Positions 1,085-39,609 of a stretch of DNA of 64,000 nt are shown here, one piece after another (positions within the stretch are counted from its first letter, which is position 1; each line of letters opens with the position of its first letter). Below the pieces are notes generated by a model that was not told the DNA's origin, ran no database searches, and saw only the letters and a program-made list of their open reading frames with translations. The position numbers were made by a program, and so were the translations under genes. The DNA is from Chitinophaga pinensis (GTDB taxonomy: Bacteria > Bacteroidota > Bacteroidia > Chitinophagales > Chitinophagaceae): the NCBI GenBank assembly GCA_945865645.1, contig CAMBEI010000003.1, positions 8,308 through 72,307 of the forward strand, given 5' to 3'.

Positions 1085-1735
1085 TTAAGCATATTTTACA
1101 ATTATACTTTCTATCACATTGGCTGCATCCTCACATTTATCCGTTACAATTTCCATTACCTGGTATATTTCTCTTTTTTTAATCACTTCTTTAGCATCTA
1201 GTTCTTCGGCAAAAAGCTTTTCAATACTCATATCAAAAATATCATCCCCCTGATTTTCTATACTATTAATTGCCACCAAAGCATCTGTGATTTTACGCAT
1301 GTCTTTCATATTGCGTAATTCGGTAACTGCATTATGCACGGCAACGCAACCACTAGAAATAATATCGGCCATTTTATGGATGCCGGTATCATTGGGATTA
1401 ACGCGATAAAAATTTATTTTTTTTGCAGAGGCATAAATATAATCAGCAATATCATCTAAGGCAGATGCGAGATAATGTATATCTTCTCTATCGAAGGGGG
1501 TGATAAAATTTTTACCTAATTCGGTAAAAATTTGGTGTGTGTAATCATCATTTTCGTGTTCCATATCTTCAAGCTCCTTGATCAATTTGGCCCGGTCATC
1601 AAAATCGGGTTCATGTACAACTTCTTTAAGTTTTTCTCCCATTTTTACCAACACGCCTACAACACTTTCAAATAGTTGAAAAAATACCCTGTCTTTGGGT
1701 AAGAAAATATTGAGAATTGAATTTAATCCTGACAT
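1085..1735 (-). CDS. DUF47 / PhoU-like phosphate transport regulator
   Basis: FITPFDREDIHYLASALDDIADY and CEDAANVIESIIVKYA motifs; directly upstream of PiT. Start moved to ATG of MSGLNS. Confidence 0.92.
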   Translation of the reverse strand: MSGLNSILNIFLPKDRVFFQLFESVVGVLVKMGEKLKEVVHEPDFDDRAKLIKELEDMEHENDDYTHQIFTELGKNFITPFDREDIHYLASALDDIADYIYASAKKINFYRVNPNDTGIHKMADIISSGCVAVHNAVTELRNMKDMRKITDALVAINSIENQGDDIFDMSIEKLFAEELDAKEVIKKREIYQVMEIVTDKCEDAANVIESIIVKYA

Positions 1736-1793
1736 AATTATAAATTTTGGCAAAGGTTACTTTTTAGTTCAAAAAGTTAAGCCCTTTTAAAAT

Positions 1794-1826
1794 GGTAACG
1801 ATTTATTAACACATAGGTAACATTAA
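1794..1826 (+). promoter_or_regulatory. Pho-box-like 11-bp direct repeat array (3 units)
   Basis: ggtaacgattt / attaacacata / ggtaacattaa; TAAC at 1796, 1807, 1818; upstream of the porin remnant in the same orientation. Confidence 0.65.
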
Positions 1827-1855
1827 ATTGTTATTTCTTTAATCCCAAATGGATT

Positions 1856-2125
1856 ATGCTTAAGAAAAATTACCATTACTGTCTATAATGCTGCTGTTTT
1901 GTCATTTGTTACATGCACAATATTTAAAGGATATGGTTGATACTAGTAAAGTAACAGGTCGTTGTTCACAGTACAATAGGTTTTGGCTATATATATTATT
2001 TAACAGAGAATGTAAAAATTGTTTTCTATTATAACAAAGTAACCAATGAAAAAGCACAACTCCAAGGTTTTACATCTGATGTTAAAGACGATGTACTTAC
2101 ATGCAGGTTGCAATTCAGGTTTTAA
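1856..2125 (+). pseudogene. Internally deleted outer-membrane porin (probably phosphate-selective OprO/OprP-like)
   Basis: ATG at 1856, then a frameshift in an A-run. Signal-peptide-like KLPLLSIMLLFCHLLHA|QYLKDMVDTSK is joined out of frame at about 1960 to STIGFGYIYYLTENVKIVFYYNKVTNEKAQLQGFTSDVKDDVLTCRLQFRF* (beta-barrel C-terminal Phe signal). Family call is from recollection of Chitinophagaceae porin termini. Confidence 0.75.
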
Positions 2126-2130
2126 TACAC

Positions 2131-2191
2131 TTAACAATTAAGTAATATACAGGTAACAATAGCGTAACTTTTAATTCATGTTGGTATAACA
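2131..2191 (+). promoter_or_regulatory. Pho-box-like 11-bp direct repeat array (5-6 units) upstream of TonB receptor
   Basis: TAAC 2132, TAAT 2143, TAAC 2154, TAAC 2165, TCAT 2176, TAAC 2187; TTTG at 2205. Confidence 0.75.
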
Positions 2192-2223
2192 TTCTTCTTG
2201 TTTTTTTGTGGAAATAATTTCTA

Positions 2224-5004
2224 ATGAAAACGCTACTACTAATTGTTACATTCTTGCTCACCATATCTGCATCATTTGCACAAAAAGGAAGAATTGAAGG
2301 AAAGATCACAGATTCAAAAACAGGAACCACAATTGCTGGTGTTACTATTCTAATTAAAGAAACCGCAAAAGGTATTGCCAGCAACTTAGACGGACGCTTT
2401 GTACTGAATGTTGAGCCGGGTAAAAAATATACCCTAATCATCAGCTCTACCAATTATCAAAGCAAAGAAGTAAACGAAATAGAAACCGGTGCCGATGGTA
2501 TTGCTTATGTTGATGTGGCGCTTGATGTAAAAGCAAAAACCGGCGATGAGGTTGTTGTACGCACCACATCTGCCAAAAATGAAAGTGTAAATGCGTTGAT
2601 CACTTTTCAAAGAACTACCAATACGGTAGCATCAGTTATATCTGCCGAAGCTATCAGAAGAAGCCCGGATAAAAATACAGGTGAAGTACTGAAACGTACG
2701 CCCGGAGCAAGTATACAGGAAGGTAAATTTATTGTGATAAGAGGATTAGCCGACCGTTACAACCAAGCAATGCTGAATGGTGTTTTGCTAACCAGCACCG
2801 AGCCCGACCGCAAAACATTTTCATTCGATCTGATTCCTGCATCAATGATTGATAATATTATCATCAATAAAGCATTTGTTCCGGAATTTCCAGGCGAGTG
2901 GGCAGGCGGACTTATTCAGGTTAACACAAAAGATATTCCTTCAAAAAACTTTTTCTCCATTCAGCTTGGTACCGGATTTAATGCGCAAACTATTGGCAAA
3001 CCTTTTTATAAAGACCCCTCCGCTGGAAAAACAGATTGGCTGGGTATTGATGATGGCACCAAGAACTTACCTGCCGGTTATACTAGGAAAGCCGAATTTG
3101 ATTCCACATCATCCGCAACTAAAACAGCCATTGGCAAACAAATGCGTAATGCATGGAGCCCAAAAGAAAGTTCGGCACCATTGAATATTTCCTTTCAGGC
3201 AAATGGAGGCTTTGCCGGTAAAATATTCGGCAAAAATATCGGCGGCATTTTTGCAATCAACTATAACAAAAGCAACAAGTACCTTAAACTTTTAAATAGG
3301 GCAAATGCGATCGATAACATCACCAATGTAGTAAGTGTTATTTCTGATTATAATGATGATAAGTATCAGCAAGATGTTTCTGTGGGCGCATTGGGCAGCC
3401 TAAGTATGCAGTTAAATGCACGCAACAGGGTTTCAGTAAAAGCAATCTTAAATGTAAACTCGCCTAATTCGGTTACACAACGCAACGGCGAAGATTTTTC
3501 AAGAGCAGAGCAGCTAAAAGGCAGTCAGTTTACCTTTAAAGAAAATACTTTTTTTACTGCTCAGCTTGCAGGTGATCACAGCGTCAGCAAGCCGCTAAAA
3601 TTTAAATGGTATGGTGCTTTTAATGTGCTGGATGGTTATACTCCTGATCAACGCCGTATTTTATATTCAAAAACAAGTAATACACAAAACCCTTATACAC
3701 TGCTTCTTTCCAACTCACTTTCGCAACAAAGTGGCAGCCGCATTTACCAAACTTTAAGCGATTATATTTATACAGCAGGCGGCGATCTTAATTATAATTT
3801 TAAATGGCTAAATAAAACGCAAGCTGTAAAAGGTGGTTACATGTTACAGATAAAAGACCGCCTGTATGATGCACAGCTTTTTGCCAATTACCTGCCGCTT
3901 GATAATCCTGCGTTAAGATTATTACCTGCCGGTAAAGTTTTTGCAGCAGAAAATTTTGGAACTGGTACTGATAATAAAATTGCCTTTGATGCCATTAAAG
4001 GAAATACATTTCGTTACATGGCCAATACAATTCTCAATGCCGGCTTCTTGCAACTTGATAACCAGTTTACCGATAAATTAAGAGTGGTGTGGGGCTTACG
4101 CGTTGAAAACTACGACCAGTTAATTGGCAGTGTAAAAAAATGGGACCCACGCCACACTTATTCTAAAGTAACAGATTTTTTACCAGGTGTAAATGCAACT
4201 TATAAATTAAATGATAAAACCAATATCAGGTTATCAGGTTCTCAAACGGTTATCCGTCCTGAGCTTCGTGAACTCTCATCTTTAAACCTGTATGATTTTG
4301 AATTGAATGCTTCTGTTCAGGGCAATCCACTTTTGAAGAGAACCAAGATCGCCAATTTTGATGCCCGTTATGAAATATATCCTAGAGCGGGTGAAGTTAT
4401 CAATGCCGGCATCTTTTACAAACATTTTATCAATCCGATAGAGCAGATATTTAATGGCCTGGGTGGTGGAGCCAGTACATTAAACTATGCCAATGCAAAA
4501 AAAGCATACTCATACGGAGTAGAAGTTGAGATGCGTAAAAAACTTGACTTCGTTAAACCGTTAAAGAATTTCACTTTCCAGGCAAATGCTGCCTACATAT
4601 ACAGTCGTGTAAAAGATCAGGCATTGCAGGTAGACAGGTCTTTACAGGGACAGTCGCCCTACATACTGAATTTAGGAATACTCTATGATCTCGAAAAGTA
4701 TGGCATCAATGCAACGCTTTTGTATAACCAGATTGGAGAAAGAATTTACCTGGTTGGCGATATTGTTGGTGGCGCACCGGACATTTATGAAGCACCCCGT
4801 CCTTTATTCGATCTGCAATTAGCAAAAAAATTACTGAATAGAAAAGCAGAACTGAGGTTGAATATTTCTGACCTGCTTAATCAAACCCAATATTTTTATC
4901 AGAACAGAAGAGGTAAAACAAGTTTTCAAAAAAGCGAAGATGCATATCGCTTTACCAGGAAATACGGAACCAATTTCAGCATAACATTTAATTACTCATT
5001 ATAA
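2224..5004 (+). CDS. TonB-dependent receptor with N-terminal carboxypeptidase-regulatory-like domain
   Basis: Signal peptide, GKITDSKTG..IAGVTI domain, plug motif (IRGLADRYNQAMLNG..FDLIP..MIDNIIINK), aromatic C-terminal beta strand (FSITFNYSL). Confidence 0.95.
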   Translation: MKTLLLIVTFLLTISASFAQKGRIEGKITDSKTGTTIAGVTILIKETAKGIASNLDGRFVLNVEPGKKYTLIISSTNYQSKEVNEIETGADGIAYVDVALDVKAKTGDEVVVRTTSAKNESVNALITFQRTTNTVASVISAEAIRRSPDKNTGEVLKRTPGASIQEGKFIVIRGLADRYNQAMLNGVLLTSTEPDRKTFSFDLIPASMIDNIIINKAFVPEFPGEWAGGLIQVNTKDIPSKNFFSIQLGTGFNAQTIGKPFYKDPSAGKTDWLGIDDGTKNLPAGYTRKAEFDSTSSATKTAIGKQMRNAWSPKESSAPLNISFQANGGFAGKIFGKNIGGIFAINYNKSNKYLKLLNRANAIDNITNVVSVISDYNDDKYQQDVSVGALGSLSMQLNARNRVSVKAILNVNSPNSVTQRNGEDFSRAEQLKGSQFTFKENTFFTAQLAGDHSVSKPLKFKWYGAFNVLDGYTPDQRRILYSKTSNTQNPYTLLLSNSLSQQSGSRIYQTLSDYIYTAGGDLNYNFKWLNKTQAVKGGYMLQIKDRLYDAQLFANYLPLDNPALRLLPAGKVFAAENFGTGTDNKIAFDAIKGNTFRYMANTILNAGFLQLDNQFTDKLRVVWGLRVENYDQLIGSVKKWDPRHTYSKVTDFLPGVNATYKLNDKTNIRLSGSQTVIRPELRELSSLNLYDFELNASVQGNPLLKRTKIANFDARYEIYPRAGEVINAGIFYKHFINPIEQIFNGLGGGASTLNYANAKKAYSYGVEVEMRKKLDFVKPLKNFTFQANAAYIYSRVKDQALQVDRSLQGQSPYILNLGILYDLEKYGINATLLYNQIGERIYLVGDIVGGAPDIYEAPRPLFDLQLAKKLLNRKAELRLNISDLLNQTQYFYQNRRGKTSFQKSEDAYRFTRKYGTNFSITFNYSL

Positions 5005-7933: not shown

Positions 7934-8632
7934 ATGCTGATGCAAAATAAAATTTCCCTCTTTACCCAAAACAAGGTCTACTTTGGCGGTCTTTTACTGA
8001 CCATATTATTTGGAATACTACTTTTACTTTTAAATGGCAAAGCTGCTGCTTTTATTGCACTTAACAGCTACCACCCCTTTTACCTAAATGTTTTTTTTAT
8101 CAACTACACATTTATAGGTGATGGCCTATTTGCATTATGCCTGATAGCCATTTATTTTTTTTACCTTAAAAAAAAACAACAGGGATTTGCTTTACTCTAC
8201 TCTTTTCTAATATCTGGTCTGGCAGCACAAATATTAAAAAACCTGGTTAATTCACCCCGGCCAAAACTTTATTTTGAGGCAGGAACGTATTTAAATTTTA
8301 TAGAAGGGGTGACATTGAGTGGCCGTTCTGGCTTTCCTTCCGGTCACACGGCTACTGCTTTTGCCATTGCTACAGTATTGGTATTAATGATGAAAAATAA
8401 AAATTGGCAGTTTCTTATTTTAAGTGCTGCGCTTTTAGTAGGTTATTCACGTATTTACTTAGCGCAGCACTTTTTGTTAGATGTAATAGTTGGTGCATTA
8501 CTTGGGTGTTTGTCTGGAATTTTAGCTTTTTATATTGCTCAGAATAGAATAAGTATTAAAAAAATACTTAGGAAATTACACCGAGTTCCAAATAAATCGG
8601 CTTCTTCAGCTTCTACTATACAAACGGCATGA
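7934..8632 (+). CDS. PAP2-family membrane phosphatase
   Basis: K..VNSPRP (C1), FPSGH (C2), SRIYLAQHFLLD (C3) motifs; hydrophobic. Confidence 0.93.
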   Translation: MLMQNKISLFTQNKVYFGGLLLTILFGILLLLLNGKAAAFIALNSYHPFYLNVFFINYTFIGDGLFALCLIAIYFFYLKKKQQGFALLYSFLISGLAAQILKNLVNSPRPKLYFEAGTYLNFIEGVTLSGRSGFPSGHTATAFAIATVLVLMMKNKNWQFLILSAALLVGYSRIYLAQHFLLDVIVGALLGCLSGILAFYIAQNRISIKKILRKLHRVPNKSASSASTIQTA

Positions 8633-36273: not shown

Positions 36274-39200
36274 TTAAATCACCACATTAATCATCTTATT
36301 TTTTACAAAGATGATTTTTTTAGGCGGATTACCTTCTAGCCATTTTTGTATAATTTCATTTTGCAAAATGATTTCCTCAACCTGCTGTTGTTCTAAATCC
36401 AATGCCAGTAGAATATTGGTACGCAGTTTACCGTTGATAGATACCGGATATTCTTTAGTAGTTTCTGCTAGCAAGGATGAGTTGAAAGTGGGATAAGATG
36501 CATCGAATATTGATCCCCCCTGCAAATCTCCCTCAGAGAAGGAGATTTGGTCAAAATTTAATTGCTGAAAGAGTTCTTCACTAATATGGGGTGCATAAGG
36601 TGATAGTAAAATTAACAGTGGTTGAAGGATTTCTTTTTTATGGCATTTTAAATCAGTAAGTTCATTTACACAAATCATGAAAGTGCTTATTGCTGTATTA
36701 AAACTGAAGCGTTCGGTATCTTCTTCAATTTTTTTGATAGTGCGATGTAACACTTTTAATTCGGCGTCGGTGGCAGCTTCACCCCCCGACCTCTCTAAAG
36801 GAGCGGGAGTCGTAGTTGTCCAGATTGGGCCCTTAAAATCATCGTAAAACAACCTCCACAGTTTTCGTAAAAAACGATGTACGCCTTCAATACCCTTTGT
36901 ATCCCATGGTTTGCTAGTTTCTACTGGGCCAAGAAACATTTCATACATGCGGAAGGTATCTGCGCCGTATTTTTCACATAGTTCATCTGGATTAACTGTA
37001 TTGTATTTTGATTTAGACATTTTTTCAACTTCTGTACCGCATACATATATATCATTACTTAAAATAAATTCTGCATTTTCATATTCGGGTCGCCACTTTT
37101 TAAATGCTTCTATATTCAATTCAACTCCATTAACAATATTTACATCCACATGAATTTTATCAAATAATAATTCATCTAAAATTGTATCATATGAATAAAA
37201 TTTATTTGTATTTTTTTTTCTATATACAAATCTTGAGCTCCCCTGTATCATTCCTTGGTTTAATAATTTTTTAAATGGCTCATCAAATCCAATTAAATCC
37301 AGATCAAATAAAACTTTGGTCCACATACGACTATATAATAAATGTCCAACAGCATGTTCTGTACCACCAACATATAGATCTACTTGGTTCCAATAATTGC
37401 TTATTTTTCGGTCGCAAAAAATTTGGGTATTGTTTGGATCCATAAAGCGTAAAAAATACCAGCTACTTCCTGCATATCCCGGCATGGTGGAGGTTTCTCG
37501 TTTAACCTCAACCCCGGTCCCTCTCGTAAAGATAGGGTTGTTGGAGCCTGCATTTAAGGCAACTTTATCATTATTTAAGATTGCCTGTTCAATATCTTTT
37601 ATAACAATATCTAAGGCATTATTTACTTGATAATTTGTAAATCTTATCATATTAAAACCAGCTTCTTTCAGCCATTCTTCCCTGCCTTTATCAAATAGTT
37701 TTTGTTCTTCATTATTGTTATATTCACGATCAATTTCTATAATTATTTTTTTTTCAAGACAAACAAAATCAGGTATATAACCGGCAATAGGGTGTTGTCT
37801 TCTTAATTTACATCCGGCAATTTTTTTATCTCTTAGCTCTTGCCAGATAATATCTTCTTCAGCAGTTGTATCTTTTCTATTTTGCTTTGCAAATGAGATG
37901 GTATTTTTCCATTGATGTACCGAGCTGTTAATATATCCAGGGACTTCGTTATCCTTCTCCATTATAGAGTAATTAGGGGAGAGCTCCTTTTCTGTTCTCT
38001 CTTGAAGAGGGATTATGAGCGAGGACCATTCTTTTATATTTGCAAGTGGGCCTTCGCCATCGGGCCCTGGTCCATATGTATTCACATGTGGTAATTGCAA
38101 AGGCAGCTCCTTAGCATCCAGTGGTAGCGCTATTCCATCAGACCAGATTATTGGGAACGGCTCACCCCAATATCTTTGTCTACTAAATCCTGCATCCCGC
38201 ATACGATAATTTACTTTCTTTTCTCCGATACCTAGTGCTTCCATTTTATTGATTGCAATACCAATTGCGTCTTTCATCAACAGGCCATTTAAAAAATCCG
38301 AATTTTCTAATATAGCTTCTTTACTATTATTAGCATTTTCGCCAGTATAGTAACTGCCAATGATATTGGTGATGGGAATGTTAAAATGTTTAGCAAATAA
38401 AAAATCACGCTGATCAGCACAAGGCACTGCCATGATCGCACCTGTACCATATCCTGCTAAAACATATTCAGCAATCCATATAGGTATTTTTTTTTCGGTA
38501 AAAGAGTTAATAGCATACGCCCCGGTAAAGCACCCTGTAATTTGTTTAACTTCAGCTATGCGTTCCCTTTCGCTTCTACTTTTAACATAATGAATATACT
38601 TTGCTACTTCTTCTTGTTTTTCTGTAATTGTAATAGAGGAAATTAATTCATGCTCGGGTGCGAGTACCATAAAGTCGGCACCAAAAATAGTATCAGGCCT
38701 AGTGGTATAAATACTTATTTTTTGCGGGATGTCTTTAATTTCAAAGTTAATTTGCGCGCCTTCGCTTTTTCCTATCCAGTTGCGTTGCATTTCTTTCATG
38801 CTATCGCTAAAATCTACCGTTTGCAATCCCTCTAGTAATCTATCTGCATAATCCGTAATTCGCAAATACCACTGCCTCATTTTCTTTTTTTCTACAAGGT
38901 GTCCGCCACGTTCACTTACCCCATTCACCACTTCATCATTAGCTAAAACGGTTCCTAAAACTGCGCACCAATTTACTTCTCCATACTTGCTAAATGCTAG
39001 TCTTCGGTTCATTAAAATTTCCTCTTGTCGCTGTTTTGTAAACTCGTTCCATTCGCTTGCAGTAAAGTGTTTCCCTGGTATTATTTCGCCGGTTATTGGC
39101 ATAGCGCCCTTTGTTTCGTACTTTTTAATTAGTAAAGAAATAGGTAAGGCTTTTTTTTGTGTGTTGCAGAAATAGCTATTAAACAATTGAAGAAATATCC

Positions 39201-39609
39201 ACTGTGTCCATTTATAATAAAGGGGATCGCTGGTTTTTAGTTCTCTATCCCAATCATAACAAAAACCAATTTTATCCAACTGCGATTTAAAAGTAGTAAT
39301 ATTCTTTTCGGTGGTTGTAGCAGGGTGCTGCCCAGTTTCTAATGCATATTGCTCGGCAGGCAACCCAAAACTATCGAACCCCATAGGATGTAAAACATTA
39401 AAGCCTTTTAATCTTTTATAACGGCTATAAATATCGCTAGCAATATATCCTAATGGATGCCCCACATGTAACCCTATGCCACTTGGATAAGGAAACATAT
39501 CCAGTACATAAAATTTTGGCTTTAAGGAATTATTAGCTATTTTATAAGTTTCATTTTTTTTCCAAGCAGCCTGCCAAATGAGTTCAATCTTTCTAAAATC
39601 GTATTCCAT
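36274..39609 (-). CDS. leuS: Leucine--tRNA ligase with in-frame DUF559 and palindromic insertions
   Basis: MFPYPSG..LHVGH, editing domain YTTRPDT, GTGAIMAVP, KMSKS; 1111 aa, longer than typical. Confidence 0.97.
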   Translation of the reverse strand: MEYDFRKIELIWQAAWKKNETYKIANNSLKPKFYVLDMFPYPSGIGLHVGHPLGYIASDIYSRYKRLKGFNVLHPMGFDSFGLPAEQYALETGQHPATTTEKNITTFKSQLDKIGFCYDWDRELKTSDPLYYKWTQWIFLQLFNSYFCNTQKKALPISLLIKKYETKGAMPITGEIIPGKHFTASEWNEFTKQRQEEILMNRRLAFSKYGEVNWCAVLGTVLANDEVVNGVSERGGHLVEKKKMRQWYLRITDYADRLLEGLQTVDFSDSMKEMQRNWIGKSEGAQINFEIKDIPQKISIYTTRPDTIFGADFMVLAPEHELISSITITEKQEEVAKYIHYVKSRSERERIAEVKQITGCFTGAYAINSFTEKKIPIWIAEYVLAGYGTGAIMAVPCADQRDFLFAKHFNIPITNIIGSYYTGENANNSKEAILENSDFLNGLLMKDAIGIAINKMEALGIGEKKVNYRMRDAGFSRQRYWGEPFPIIWSDGIALPLDAKELPLQLPHVNTYGPGPDGEGPLANIKEWSSLIIPLQERTEKELSPNYSIMEKDNEVPGYINSSVHQWKNTISFAKQNRKDTTAEEDIIWQELRDKKIAGCKLRRQHPIAGYIPDFVCLEKKIIIEIDREYNNNEEQKLFDKGREEWLKEAGFNMIRFTNYQVNNALDIVIKDIEQAILNNDKVALNAGSNNPIFTRGTGVEVKRETSTMPGYAGSSWYFLRFMDPNNTQIFCDRKISNYWNQVDLYVGGTEHAVGHLLYSRMWTKVLFDLDLIGFDEPFKKLLNQGMIQGSSRFVYRKKNTNKFYSYDTILDELLFDKIHVDVNIVNGVELNIEAFKKWRPEYENAEFILSNDIYVCGTEVEKMSKSKYNTVNPDELCEKYGADTFRMYEMFLGPVETSKPWDTKGIEGVHRFLRKLWRLFYDDFKGPIWTTTTPAPLERSGGEAATDAELKVLHRTIKKIEEDTERFSFNTAISTFMICVNELTDLKCHKKEILQPLLILLSPYAPHISEELFQQLNFDQISFSEGDLQGGSIFDASYPTFNSSLLAETTKEYPVSINGKLRTNILLALDLEQQQVEEIILQNEIIQKWLEGNPPKKIIFVKNKMINVVI
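36513..36550 (-). repeat. REP-like palindromic insert inside leuS (in frame, encodes QISFSEGDLQGGS)
   Basis: C-rich tail plus 9-bp perfect stem caaatctcc (36523-31) / ggagatttg (36541-49). Confidence 0.75.
36777..36809 (-). repeat. REP-like palindromic insert inside leuS (encodes PAPLERSGGEA)
   Basis: cttcaccccccgacctctctaaaggagcgggag; same architecture as the ends of the DUF559 element. Confidence 0.75.
37506..38024 (-). mobile_element. 519-bp in-frame element in leuS: DUF559/Vsr-like endonuclease flanked by inverted REP-like ends
   Basis: Ends cctc-N8-tccctct-N5-hairpin in inverted orientation at 37506 and 38024; core FAKQNRK.T.AEE.IWQELR..K.RRQHPIAGYIPDFVC..IIEID..RF.N. Confidence 0.75.

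Follow-up and report, generated by a model that had tools for sequence, protein, structure and literature searches.

A decaying DUF559 nuclease cassette, bounded by remnants of terminal inverted repeats, as a probable in-frame passenger of leucyl-tRNA synthetase in a freshwater Chitinophagaceae bacterium

The stretch of 64,000 nucleotides analysed here, called the window below (contig CAMBEI010000003.1 of assembly GCA_945865645.1, labelled Chitinophaga pinensis, positions 8,308 to 72,307), carries on its minus strand leuS, the gene of leucyl-tRNA synthetase (LeuRS). Its open reading frame (ORF) of 1111 amino acids holds the Pfam domains tRNA-synt_1, LeuRS editing domain and Anticodon_1, and is enlarged by 174 codons inserted in frame between GPLANIKEW on one side and KRETSTMPG on the other. 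The insert, delimited by comparison with a filled relative (L010) and an empty one (L008), encodes a DUF559 nuclease domain between remnants of terminal inverted repeats (TIRs), and it is probably an old copy of a selfish cassette. Its position, site A, is a variable loop, which in the LeuRSs of Thermus and Neisseria carries a CxxC knuckle. The features of the locus are given below, with AlphaFold2 (AF2) confidence expressed as predicted local distance difference test (pLDDT) and selection as omega, the ratio of non-synonymous to synonymous divergence.

36274..39609, minus strand: leuS, leucyl-tRNA synthetase, the host gene
37504..38025, minus strand: whole in-frame insert at LeuRS site A, amino acids 529-702
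37990..38025, minus strand: gene-proximal (5') TIR remnant encoding SSLIIPLQERTE, homologous to GACCTCACCCCNAACCCCTCTCCAAAGGAGAGGGG (DLTPNPSPKERG) of intact copies and matched by the TIR profile
37915..37989, minus strand: extra N-side linker KELSPNYSIMEKDNEVPGYINSSV, predicted to be disordered (AF2 pLDDT <50 at amino acids 534-568; omega ~0.5-0.8)
37570..37914, minus strand: DUF559/Vsr-like PD-(D/E)xK nuclease core, amino acids 566-680, from Pfam, PDB sequence search and AF2/Foldseek
37717..37740, minus strand: mutated catalytic motif IEIDREYN (G628R, H631N), for a family consensus IEIDG(G/E)YH
37504..37542, minus strand: gene-distal (3') TIR remnant encoding NNPIFTRGTGVEV, homologous to TCCCCTCTCCNNNGGAGAGGGGTTGGGGGTGAGGTC (SPLPGRGVGGEV), with matches at 37519-37537 and 37505-37536 (pLDDT <50 at amino acids 682-699)

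A first-pass annotation of this DNA had placed the insert at 37506-38024 (519 bp) and counted 173 codons. This interval runs from CCTC to GAGG and lies at most 2 nt from the boundaries; the codon count is 174. The inverted motif that had been noticed at both ends stands: CCTC-N8-TCCCTCT is found exactly twice in the 64 kb, at 37506-37524 on the plus strand and at 38006-38024 on the minus strand, that is at the two ends of the insert, for a chance expectation of 0.03 and with two or more matches in 0/100 shuffles. A profile drawn from the intact TIRs of relatives agrees, its three best window matches being 37505-37536 (+), 38014-37996 (-) and 36779-36803 (+), with marginal E-values of 0.08-1.8, while every other match is no better than E=17; the best of the three is the last, a solo copy discussed below. 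A generic repeat search of the region and of the whole window found neither the inverted ends nor any family of repetitive extragenic palindromic (REP) sequences, so that the ends are recognisable only through relatives. As to the hairpins proposed at the ends, they exist in the intact TIRs of relatives, whereas those of the window are imperfect stems of 6/7 bp that fold no better than shuffles.

In relatives the TIR consensus is ~36 bp long and reads GACCTCACCCC-N-AACCCCTCTCC-AAA-GGAGAGGGG, with a hairpin of 7-10 bp; it consists of a conserved outer box, ACCTCACCCC, and the GC-rich hairpin. Once translated, TIRs become disordered Pro/Ser/Gly linkers, typical site-A copies having VDLTPNPSPKERGT as N-flank and NSPLPGRGVGGEVK as C-flank, which are reverse complements of each other as DNA. 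The closest relative for which DNA is available (L010) has TGACCTCACCCCTAACCCCTCTCCAAAGGAGAGGGGA on the left and TCCCCTCTCCCTGGGAGAGGGGTTGGGGGTGAGGTCA on the right, with an inverted match at 33/36 positions and in each TIR a 9-bp hairpin of -10 kcal/mol. Judged by this alignment, SSLIIPLQERTE and NNPIFTRGTGVEV of the window are eroded forms of the relatives' TIR flanks, and the window GC content of 33.5% fits erosion of GC-rich cassette ends. Perfect hairpins of at least 7 bp occur in 70/78 unique TIRs compared with 0.5% of shuffles, with covariation in the stems (CCCCTCTCC/GGAGAGGGG, CCCTTCTCC/GGAGAAGGG, CCCCTCC/GGAGGGG, CCTCCCC/GGGGAGG). The left loop reads AAA and the right one TTT, which makes the TIRs true inverted repeats; the idea that they represent a duplicated palindromic target, in other words a disguised target-site duplication (TSD), was rejected since the loops are inverted and not direct. 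In agreement with the first reading, no TSD is seen at the window insert or in relatives, where target bases are lost instead. Selection of TIRs for the absence of stop codons finds no support beyond composition (4.8/6 open frames compared with 4.6 in shuffles), and Rfam holds no family matching the hairpins.

The central part of the insert belongs to DUF559 by all measures taken. PF04480 matches amino acids 570-677 with E=1.3e-26 (93 bits for a cutoff of 20.6 bits), and a PDB sequence search with the window domain retrieves 3hrl (E=1.7e-25) and 3r3p, the structure of I-Bth0305I (E=2.7e-5). In the AF2 model of the isolated insert the core reaches pLDDT 92-97 and adopts a restriction-endonuclease-like alpha/beta fold, for which Foldseek returns 3hrl with a template-modelling (TM) score of 0.87, 3r3p with TM 0.80-0.81 and Vsr (1cw0) with probability 0.96. 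The core is also folded in the model of the whole LeuRS (pLDDT 83.5), where pLDDT falls below 50 only at the TIR-derived linkers (534-568 and 682-699) and at two short inserts (933-943 and 1023-1030). The same fold search showed a resemblance of the DUF559 model to several mitoribosomal proteins of Toxoplasma and Tetrahymena, which by analogy may be an existing case of Vsr-like folds that are dead as nucleases and serve in RNA binding.

The family has five catalytic residues, D-E-D-G-H (the D of PDF, those of E-x-D-G, and a His that is the putative counterpart of Vsr His69). This set is intact in 112/116 cassettes at LeuRS site A, 18/20 at LeuRS site B, 33/34 in chorismate synthase (AroC), 16/16 in guanylate kinase (Gmk), hence in ~95% of embedded copies, and in 36/39 of the nearest DUF559 homologues, which are mostly free-standing. 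The window copy has DEDRN. Its Arg is encoded by CGT and its Asn by AAC, each one base away from a Gly or His codon, as the first-pass annotation had stated together with the DUF559/Vsr-like assignment, and IIEIDREYN is kept in all population variants of the window LeuRS. The view that the nuclease has been disarmed is thus upheld by the lost residues and by the eroded hairpins. Among site-A carriers the window copy is the second-most deviant at conserved core positions, departing at 4/36 of the highly conserved ones (F602L, L622I, G628R and H631N). It would therefore be a structural member of the family that, on its residues, is probably catalytically dead.

Comparison with relatives gives omega ~0.14-0.27 for the DUF559 core, ~0.5-0.8 for the linkers and <0.08 for the enzyme body, where dS (synonymous divergence) is saturated. 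Linkers evolve nearly neutrally and the core is under purifying selection. No extra relaxation of the window core was detected, the core/body ratio of private changes being 1.9-fold compared with 1.7-fold in relatives. The window copy is probably immobile, with its hairpins gone, yet not free-falling.

The insert is retained in mRNA. Metatranscriptome contigs cover 37347-37548, 37469-37710, 37925-38059 and 37924-38072 contiguously, and none of them has a joint or skips the insert across the two junctions, although rare spliced forms or DNA carry-over are possible. Removal at the RNA level, which would have spoken against a resident element, is thus not observed, and by extension the insert should also be present in the LeuRS protein. 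The claimed lack of intein splicing motifs was likewise borne out: LeuRS has no Hint/intein Pfam match, the insert ends in ..GVEV with Lys as the next residue, and a His-Asn/Cys-Ser-Thr junction is missing.

Site A is occupied in 117/120 of the closest LeuRSs (59-77% identity, from metagenome-assembled genomes of Ferruginibacter/Chitinophagaceae), and PF04480 is present in all 120. A second position, site B, located after window amino acid ~291, is filled in 20/120; 17 of these carriers have both sites filled, and three have site B only with site A empty. A third site, after amino acid ~413, appears among LeuRS cluster representatives.

The cassette is not confined to LeuRS. A metagenome scan with an alignment of the DUF559 subfamily yielded 80 loci, the census consisting of the 80 most similar to the LeuRS cassette; in-frame embedding was judged from stop-to-stop ORFs, and hosts were confirmed by Pfam. 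TIRs of 33-50 bp surround the DUF559 ORF in ~70/80 loci, the whole element spans 440-620 bp, and its sole ORF is DUF559, without a stop codon of its own. The tight association of repeats with DUF559 bears out the class of selfish element proposed at first reading (a DUF559 nuclease with palindromic inverted ends, in frame in housekeeping genes) and removes the objection that DUF559 might occur regardless of the repeats. Host proteins are distributed as follows.

Chorismate synthase (AroC): 34 loci
Guanylate kinase (Gmk), at the N-terminus: 16 loci, plus 8 'stand-alone' calls at the same site
LeuRS site A: 15 loci
LeuRS site B: 3 loci
Lhr helicase: 1 locus
IspF, at the N-terminus (L088): 1 locus

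An initial protein search also placed the cassette internally in IspF, in Rpe and in AroC fragments. Across hundreds of hosts, it is the same sites that are occupied. Beyond this census, three distant Patescibacteria loci have free DUF559 genes with inverted ends made of box plus hairpin. A related observation comes from a Pseudanabaena sp. ABRG5-3 plasmid (NZ_AP017561; L093, 404-1130), where a DUF559 gene annotated as 'endonuclease domain-containing protein' lies inside inverted repeats that are perfect and nested (40 and 35 nt), both made of a box and a hairpin, and further copies follow downstream; the architecture is that of Bacteroidota TIRs and the sequence is different. In the Lhr-type helicase (L086, 2324-3200), the in-frame DUF559 cassette is followed by 4-5 tandem units of 54 nt (LTPSPSPVERGAKTENDL), each with a TIR, and such repeats may be able to amplify in tandem within a coding sequence. 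Phage and plasmid vectors were searched for as well, and only distant DUF559 genes were found; those of IMG/VR viral contigs (L095-L110) are only 33-40% identical, many of them near the ends of ~6-7-kb uncultivated viral genomes (UViGs).

Some contigs with the cassette have unusual arrangements. L053 (2331-2984) is a fold-back contig in which 125 nt of the aroC flank are repeated in inverted orientation, and L006 (1-330) joins a foreign gene end to a cassette followed by the C-terminal half of aroC. Both were set aside as probable assembly chimeras at the repeat, hairpin repeats probably misleading short-read assemblers. A 40-amino acid internal duplication is seen in the aroC of L021.

Turnover of cassettes at a given site is apparent from several comparisons. 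Identities of insert and host LeuRS are weakly correlated (Spearman 0.20), and two LeuRSs that are 95% identical as proteins (P0059 and P0090) have cassettes that are 51% identical, which removes the possibility, foreseen at the outset, of a vertically inherited fusion. Their DNAs (L091 and L092) are ~99-100% identical except at leuS nt 1600-3300, a 1.7-kb recombination tract with graded flanks, a different lineage of site-A cassette and junctions offset by 3-6 nt. The TIRs of the swapped cassette are read in another frame (TSSPSLLHKMEKG... / ...FSHPSPRSGEGMGV). This tract also exchanges the leucine-specific variable domain (nt 2800-3300, 40-58% mismatches). From these alignments, leuS is a mosaic through recombination. 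Cassettes do not cluster cleanly by host site (identity of 0.61 within sites and 0.55-0.59 between sites), and identical TIR variants are found at LeuRS sites A and B. Three alleles coexist at a rumen gmk site (L083, 2376-2889) in contigs of the bovine rumen metatranscriptome. The full allele has its own ATG in the left leader and no stop, and reads into Gmk; the empty allele starts with MRGKLIIFSA, 14 nt including the gmk start codon being replaced where the element is present; the third is an ORF-less doublet, TIR-13 nt-TIR. Insertion at LeuRS site A is likewise accompanied by the loss of loop codons. Altogether, occupancy is that of homing elements, with sites in conserved genes, filled and empty alleles, and co-converted flanks.

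Solo repeats are found within leuS itself.

36775..36810, minus strand: solo TIR remnant TPAPLERSGGEA, 12 codons in frame in the C-terminal part of leuS, with matches at 36789-36807 and 36779-36803 (the best profile match)
36511..36546, minus strand: second, more divergent solo palindromic remnant ISFSEGDLQGGS, ~11-12 codons in frame, present in 7/78 relatives (weaker assignment)

The former contains the GC-richest 30-mer of the window, is predicted to be disordered (amino acids 933-943) and is polymorphic, being present in ~47 and absent in 46 of 93 relatives. The latter, predicted to be disordered at amino acids 1023-1030, has VPSPGGDLGEA-type inserts as counterparts in relatives; it is not detected by the soil-type TIR profile, hence its weaker assignment as a solo. 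Both are in-frame palindromic repeats tolerated as predicted disordered peptides and polymorphic among relatives. The suggestion that the element seeds solo REPs is supported only in part: solos lie inside leuS, where they may be products of the element or may have preceded it, and none was found in the rest of the 64 kb.

These data are best accounted for, with a probability of about 0.7, by considering the window insert as the old and decaying remainder of a small selfish cassette, TIR-DUF559-TIR, that lives in frame in housekeeping genes. The cassette would be a stopless DUF559 ORF between ~36-bp TIRs, transcribed with its host gene and translated into the host protein, with TIR-encoded disordered linkers by which the folded nuclease would be attached to a tolerant loop at the surface or to a terminus. 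Since the TIRs are read as disordered linkers, neither intron nor intein is needed. Spreading would rely on the nuclease breaking an empty or ORF-less allele, followed by repair that copies the cassette from a filled one (homing-like gene conversion), the TIRs serving as recognition and homology module; for this step of cleavage and recombinational copying we would put the odds slightly below even. The window copy would no longer be mobile, its hairpins being eroded and its catalytic Gly and His now Arg and Asn. It would stay in frame and folded because leuS is essential, so that a frameshift, a stop, an imprecise deletion or misfolding would be lethal; LeuRS would then be made with a passenger of 174 amino acids, and the two 12-codon solos would be further remnants of the same family. 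The first-pass annotation had seen in this retention a domestication, possibly with binding of nucleic acid; the lethality of imprecise loss from an essential gene explains the retention equally well.

Several points weigh against the selfish cassette. What is said of cleavage and mobility is inferential throughout, and homing elements normally need no TIRs. Two cassette lineages that are only 42-50% identical share one site, a situation hard to reconcile with a nuclease that recognises its target unaided. An active site kept in ~95% of copies might be due to a benefit to the host and not to selfish activity, and the window core, not detectably faster than those of relatives (1.9 versus 1.7), may leave room for a retained function. 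The L091/L092 tract represents homologous recombination, not necessarily driven by a nuclease, and contigs from metagenomes may be joined wrongly at repeats (L006, L053). Finally, cross-site nucleotide identity peaks at ~80%, so that no recent jump between host genes is documented, and the 64-kb window contains no TIR copy outside leuS and no other DUF559.

A wider proposal, held tentatively, is that DUF559 could be the mobility enzyme of mini elements spanning phyla, made of hairpin TIRs and a ~110-amino acid Vsr-like nuclease, of which the Bacteroidota branch would be translated as an active domain of host enzymes, a third way of residing in essential genes besides introns and inteins. The nuclease would attack TIR 'landing pads' (solos, doublets, empty sites) and the ORF would be copied from any full copy. 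Spread via landing pads would account for TIR conservation, the lack of TSDs, cassette lineages that mix between sites and the existence of an ORF-less doublet.

The same cassette might instead be a transposon, in which a DUF559 dimer recognises the hairpin TIRs, cuts both ends and allows the unit, excised or copied, to insert elsewhere (as REP-associated tyrosine transposases, RAYTs, do with REPs and with REP doublets forming hairpins, REPINs), solos and doublets being derivatives comparable to REPINs or MITEs (miniature transposable elements with inverted repeats). The true TIRs with covarying stems, the box-plus-hairpin architecture conserved across phyla, the ORF-less TIR-13 nt-TIR allele, the solos at other in-frame positions and the lack of clean clustering by site, with identical TIR variants at different sites, would all suit such an element. 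However, while it has the ends of a TIR transposon, neither a TSD nor a DDE, HUH, serine or tyrosine transposase is found, target nucleotides are lost (14 nt at gmk, loop codons at LeuRS site A), near-identical copies at different sites are missing and occupancy is limited to a handful of conserved-gene sites where scattering would be expected. To our knowledge, no strand-transfer chemistry is available to a ~110-amino acid PD-(D/E)xK nuclease domain, and we regard transposition as unlikely. Exaptation, whereby the nuclease-dead domain would serve LeuRS (e.g. by adding a module that binds RNA or DNA) and owe its retention to positive selection, is less credible still. Such a role would be in keeping with a core omega of ~0.14-0.27 that is not relaxed relative to relatives, with 32/36 conserved positions kept despite the loss of the catalytic His, with a sequence invariant across lake populations and with Vsr/DUF559-like folds that act as RNA-binding proteins in apicomplexan mitoribosomes. 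But active copies lie on some of the branches over which conservation was measured, frame and foldability are enforced by the mere fact that leuS is essential, three close LeuRSs have no cassette at site A, and the presence of the same cassette in the unrelated AroC, Gmk, IspF and Lhr is explained without any host-specific role.

A single ancient domain fusion, inherited vertically in the LeuRSs of Chitinophagaceae and with inverted ends that would be incidental low-complexity linkers, would account at once for PF04480 in 120/120 of the closest LeuRSs, 117 of them at the same site. It is largely refuted, and very improbable, in view of the weak coupling of insert and host, of near-identical hosts that differ by 51%-identical cassettes with offset junctions, of empty-site relatives, and of linkers that are reverse-complementary as DNA and are found again next to DUF559 in other genes and phyla. 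Most remote of all is a mature LeuRS without the insert, removed as an intein, intact or degenerate, or as an intervening sequence of the RNA: an in-frame, nuclease-bearing insertion in a conserved essential gene would look like such an element, and Vsr-like nucleases are known as partners of inteins and introns (PMC2677866, PMC3424549), but there is no Hint domain, no C-terminal His-Asn and a Lys after the insert, RNA contigs run through both junctions without a break, and the TIRs of the window have eroded too far for pairing.

Other features of the host deserve mention. The gene order ftsX - leuS - M23 peptidase - dxs is common to the window and its relatives. Many unrelated inserts of 50-330 amino acids occur among LeuRS cluster representatives (P0161-P0310) at two hot spots around the editing domain, which map to window LeuRS amino acids ~264-299 and ~413-460; in other lineages these inserts look NUDIX-like, alpha/beta-hydrolase-like and acetyltransferase-like by motifs. 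LeuRS thus seems unusually tolerant of domain insertion. An apparent 'split leuS' (P0001 and P0007) was rejected, its source (L004) being a noisy long-read contig with every gene fragmented. The window sequence recurs unchanged in lake and freshwater metagenomes of many studies and years, and this recurrence, together with the 33.5% GC and the Ferruginibacter/Chitinophagaceae LeuRS relatives, suggests an abundant, possibly streamlined freshwater lineage of Chitinophagaceae; a JGI contig of 196.8 kb (L014) probably comes from the same organism.

If the selfish cassette is real, DUF559, a large orphan nuclease family, would gain a biological role, and a nuclease-encoding selfish element would be able to persist in essential genes without splicing machinery, as a tolerated domain on disordered linkers. 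It would explain the annotation of some LeuRSs as 'DUF559 domain-containing protein' and the broken or chimeric assemblies at these loci. In addition, LeuRS, AroC, Gmk and IspF would offer naturally tolerated insertion sites, with their linkers, and the small structure- or site-specific nucleases might form a new family. The window copy would document the end state, a dead passenger locked in an essential enzyme of an abundant freshwater bacterium.

Concerning known systems, no description of TIR-bounded, intein-less, in-frame DUF559 cassettes was found in the searchable literature; subscription journals are mostly outside its coverage and an earlier description is possible. The closest parallel in lifestyle is found in inteins with homing endonucleases, which are also in-frame selfish DNA at conserved sites of essential genes, encode a nuclease, use host expression signals, and display presence/absence polymorphism with recombination tracts around the element. 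In contrast to them, the cassette has no Hint/splicing domain or junction residues and stays in the mRNA and presumably in the protein; it has hairpin TIRs, and its nuclease is DUF559/Vsr-like and not LAGLIDADG or HNH. As a family, DUF559 (PF04480; 3hrl is NGO0050 of Neisseria gonorrhoeae) includes the window domain by sequence and predicted fold. Typical members are free proteins of 110-300 amino acids, and Vsr is a T:G mismatch nicking enzyme, whereas the window domain is embedded in LeuRS with its Gly and His replaced.

Vsr and the group I intron endonuclease I-Bth0305I both belong to the Vsr/DUF559/DUF2726 clade (PMC3424549), and 'fractured genes' hold Vsr-like endonucleases between the two halves of split inteins (Dassa et al. 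2009, PMC2677866). Homing endonucleases of this Vsr-like type (EDxHD; PMC2677866; Taylor et al. 2011, cited in PMC3424549) share with the cassette the nuclease superfamily and fold and the association with conserved housekeeping or replication genes. They are, however, free-standing ORFs in group I introns or between split-intein halves and have an extra DNA-binding region, while the nuclease of the cassette comes without intron or intein, forms part of the host protein, is bounded by TIRs and is much closer in sequence to the DUF559 protein 3hrl (E=1.7e-25).

On the side of repeats, REP/REPIN-RAYT systems (Nunvar 2010; Bertels and Rainey 2011, PMC3116915) likewise place a small nuclease gene between inverted GC-rich hairpins, with ORF-less singlets and doublets elsewhere. 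Around the cassette, flanking hairpins, some solos and one doublet are seen. Yet RAYT is an HUH/Y1 transposase and REPs are extragenic and number in the hundreds, unlike the PD-(D/E)xK enzyme (PF04480) of the cassette, which exists in few copies, none outside leuS in the window, and lies in frame with its solos inside coding sequence. Rickettsia palindromic elements (RPEs; Ogata et al. 2000) are reportedly 100-150 bp long and devoid of an enzyme ORF; the solos of the cassette family measure 36 bp, and its full element encodes a folded nuclease domain. The cassette can accordingly be viewed as a hybrid of homing endonuclease genes, REPIN-RAYT-like pairs of repeat and nuclease, and RPE-like in-frame palindromes.

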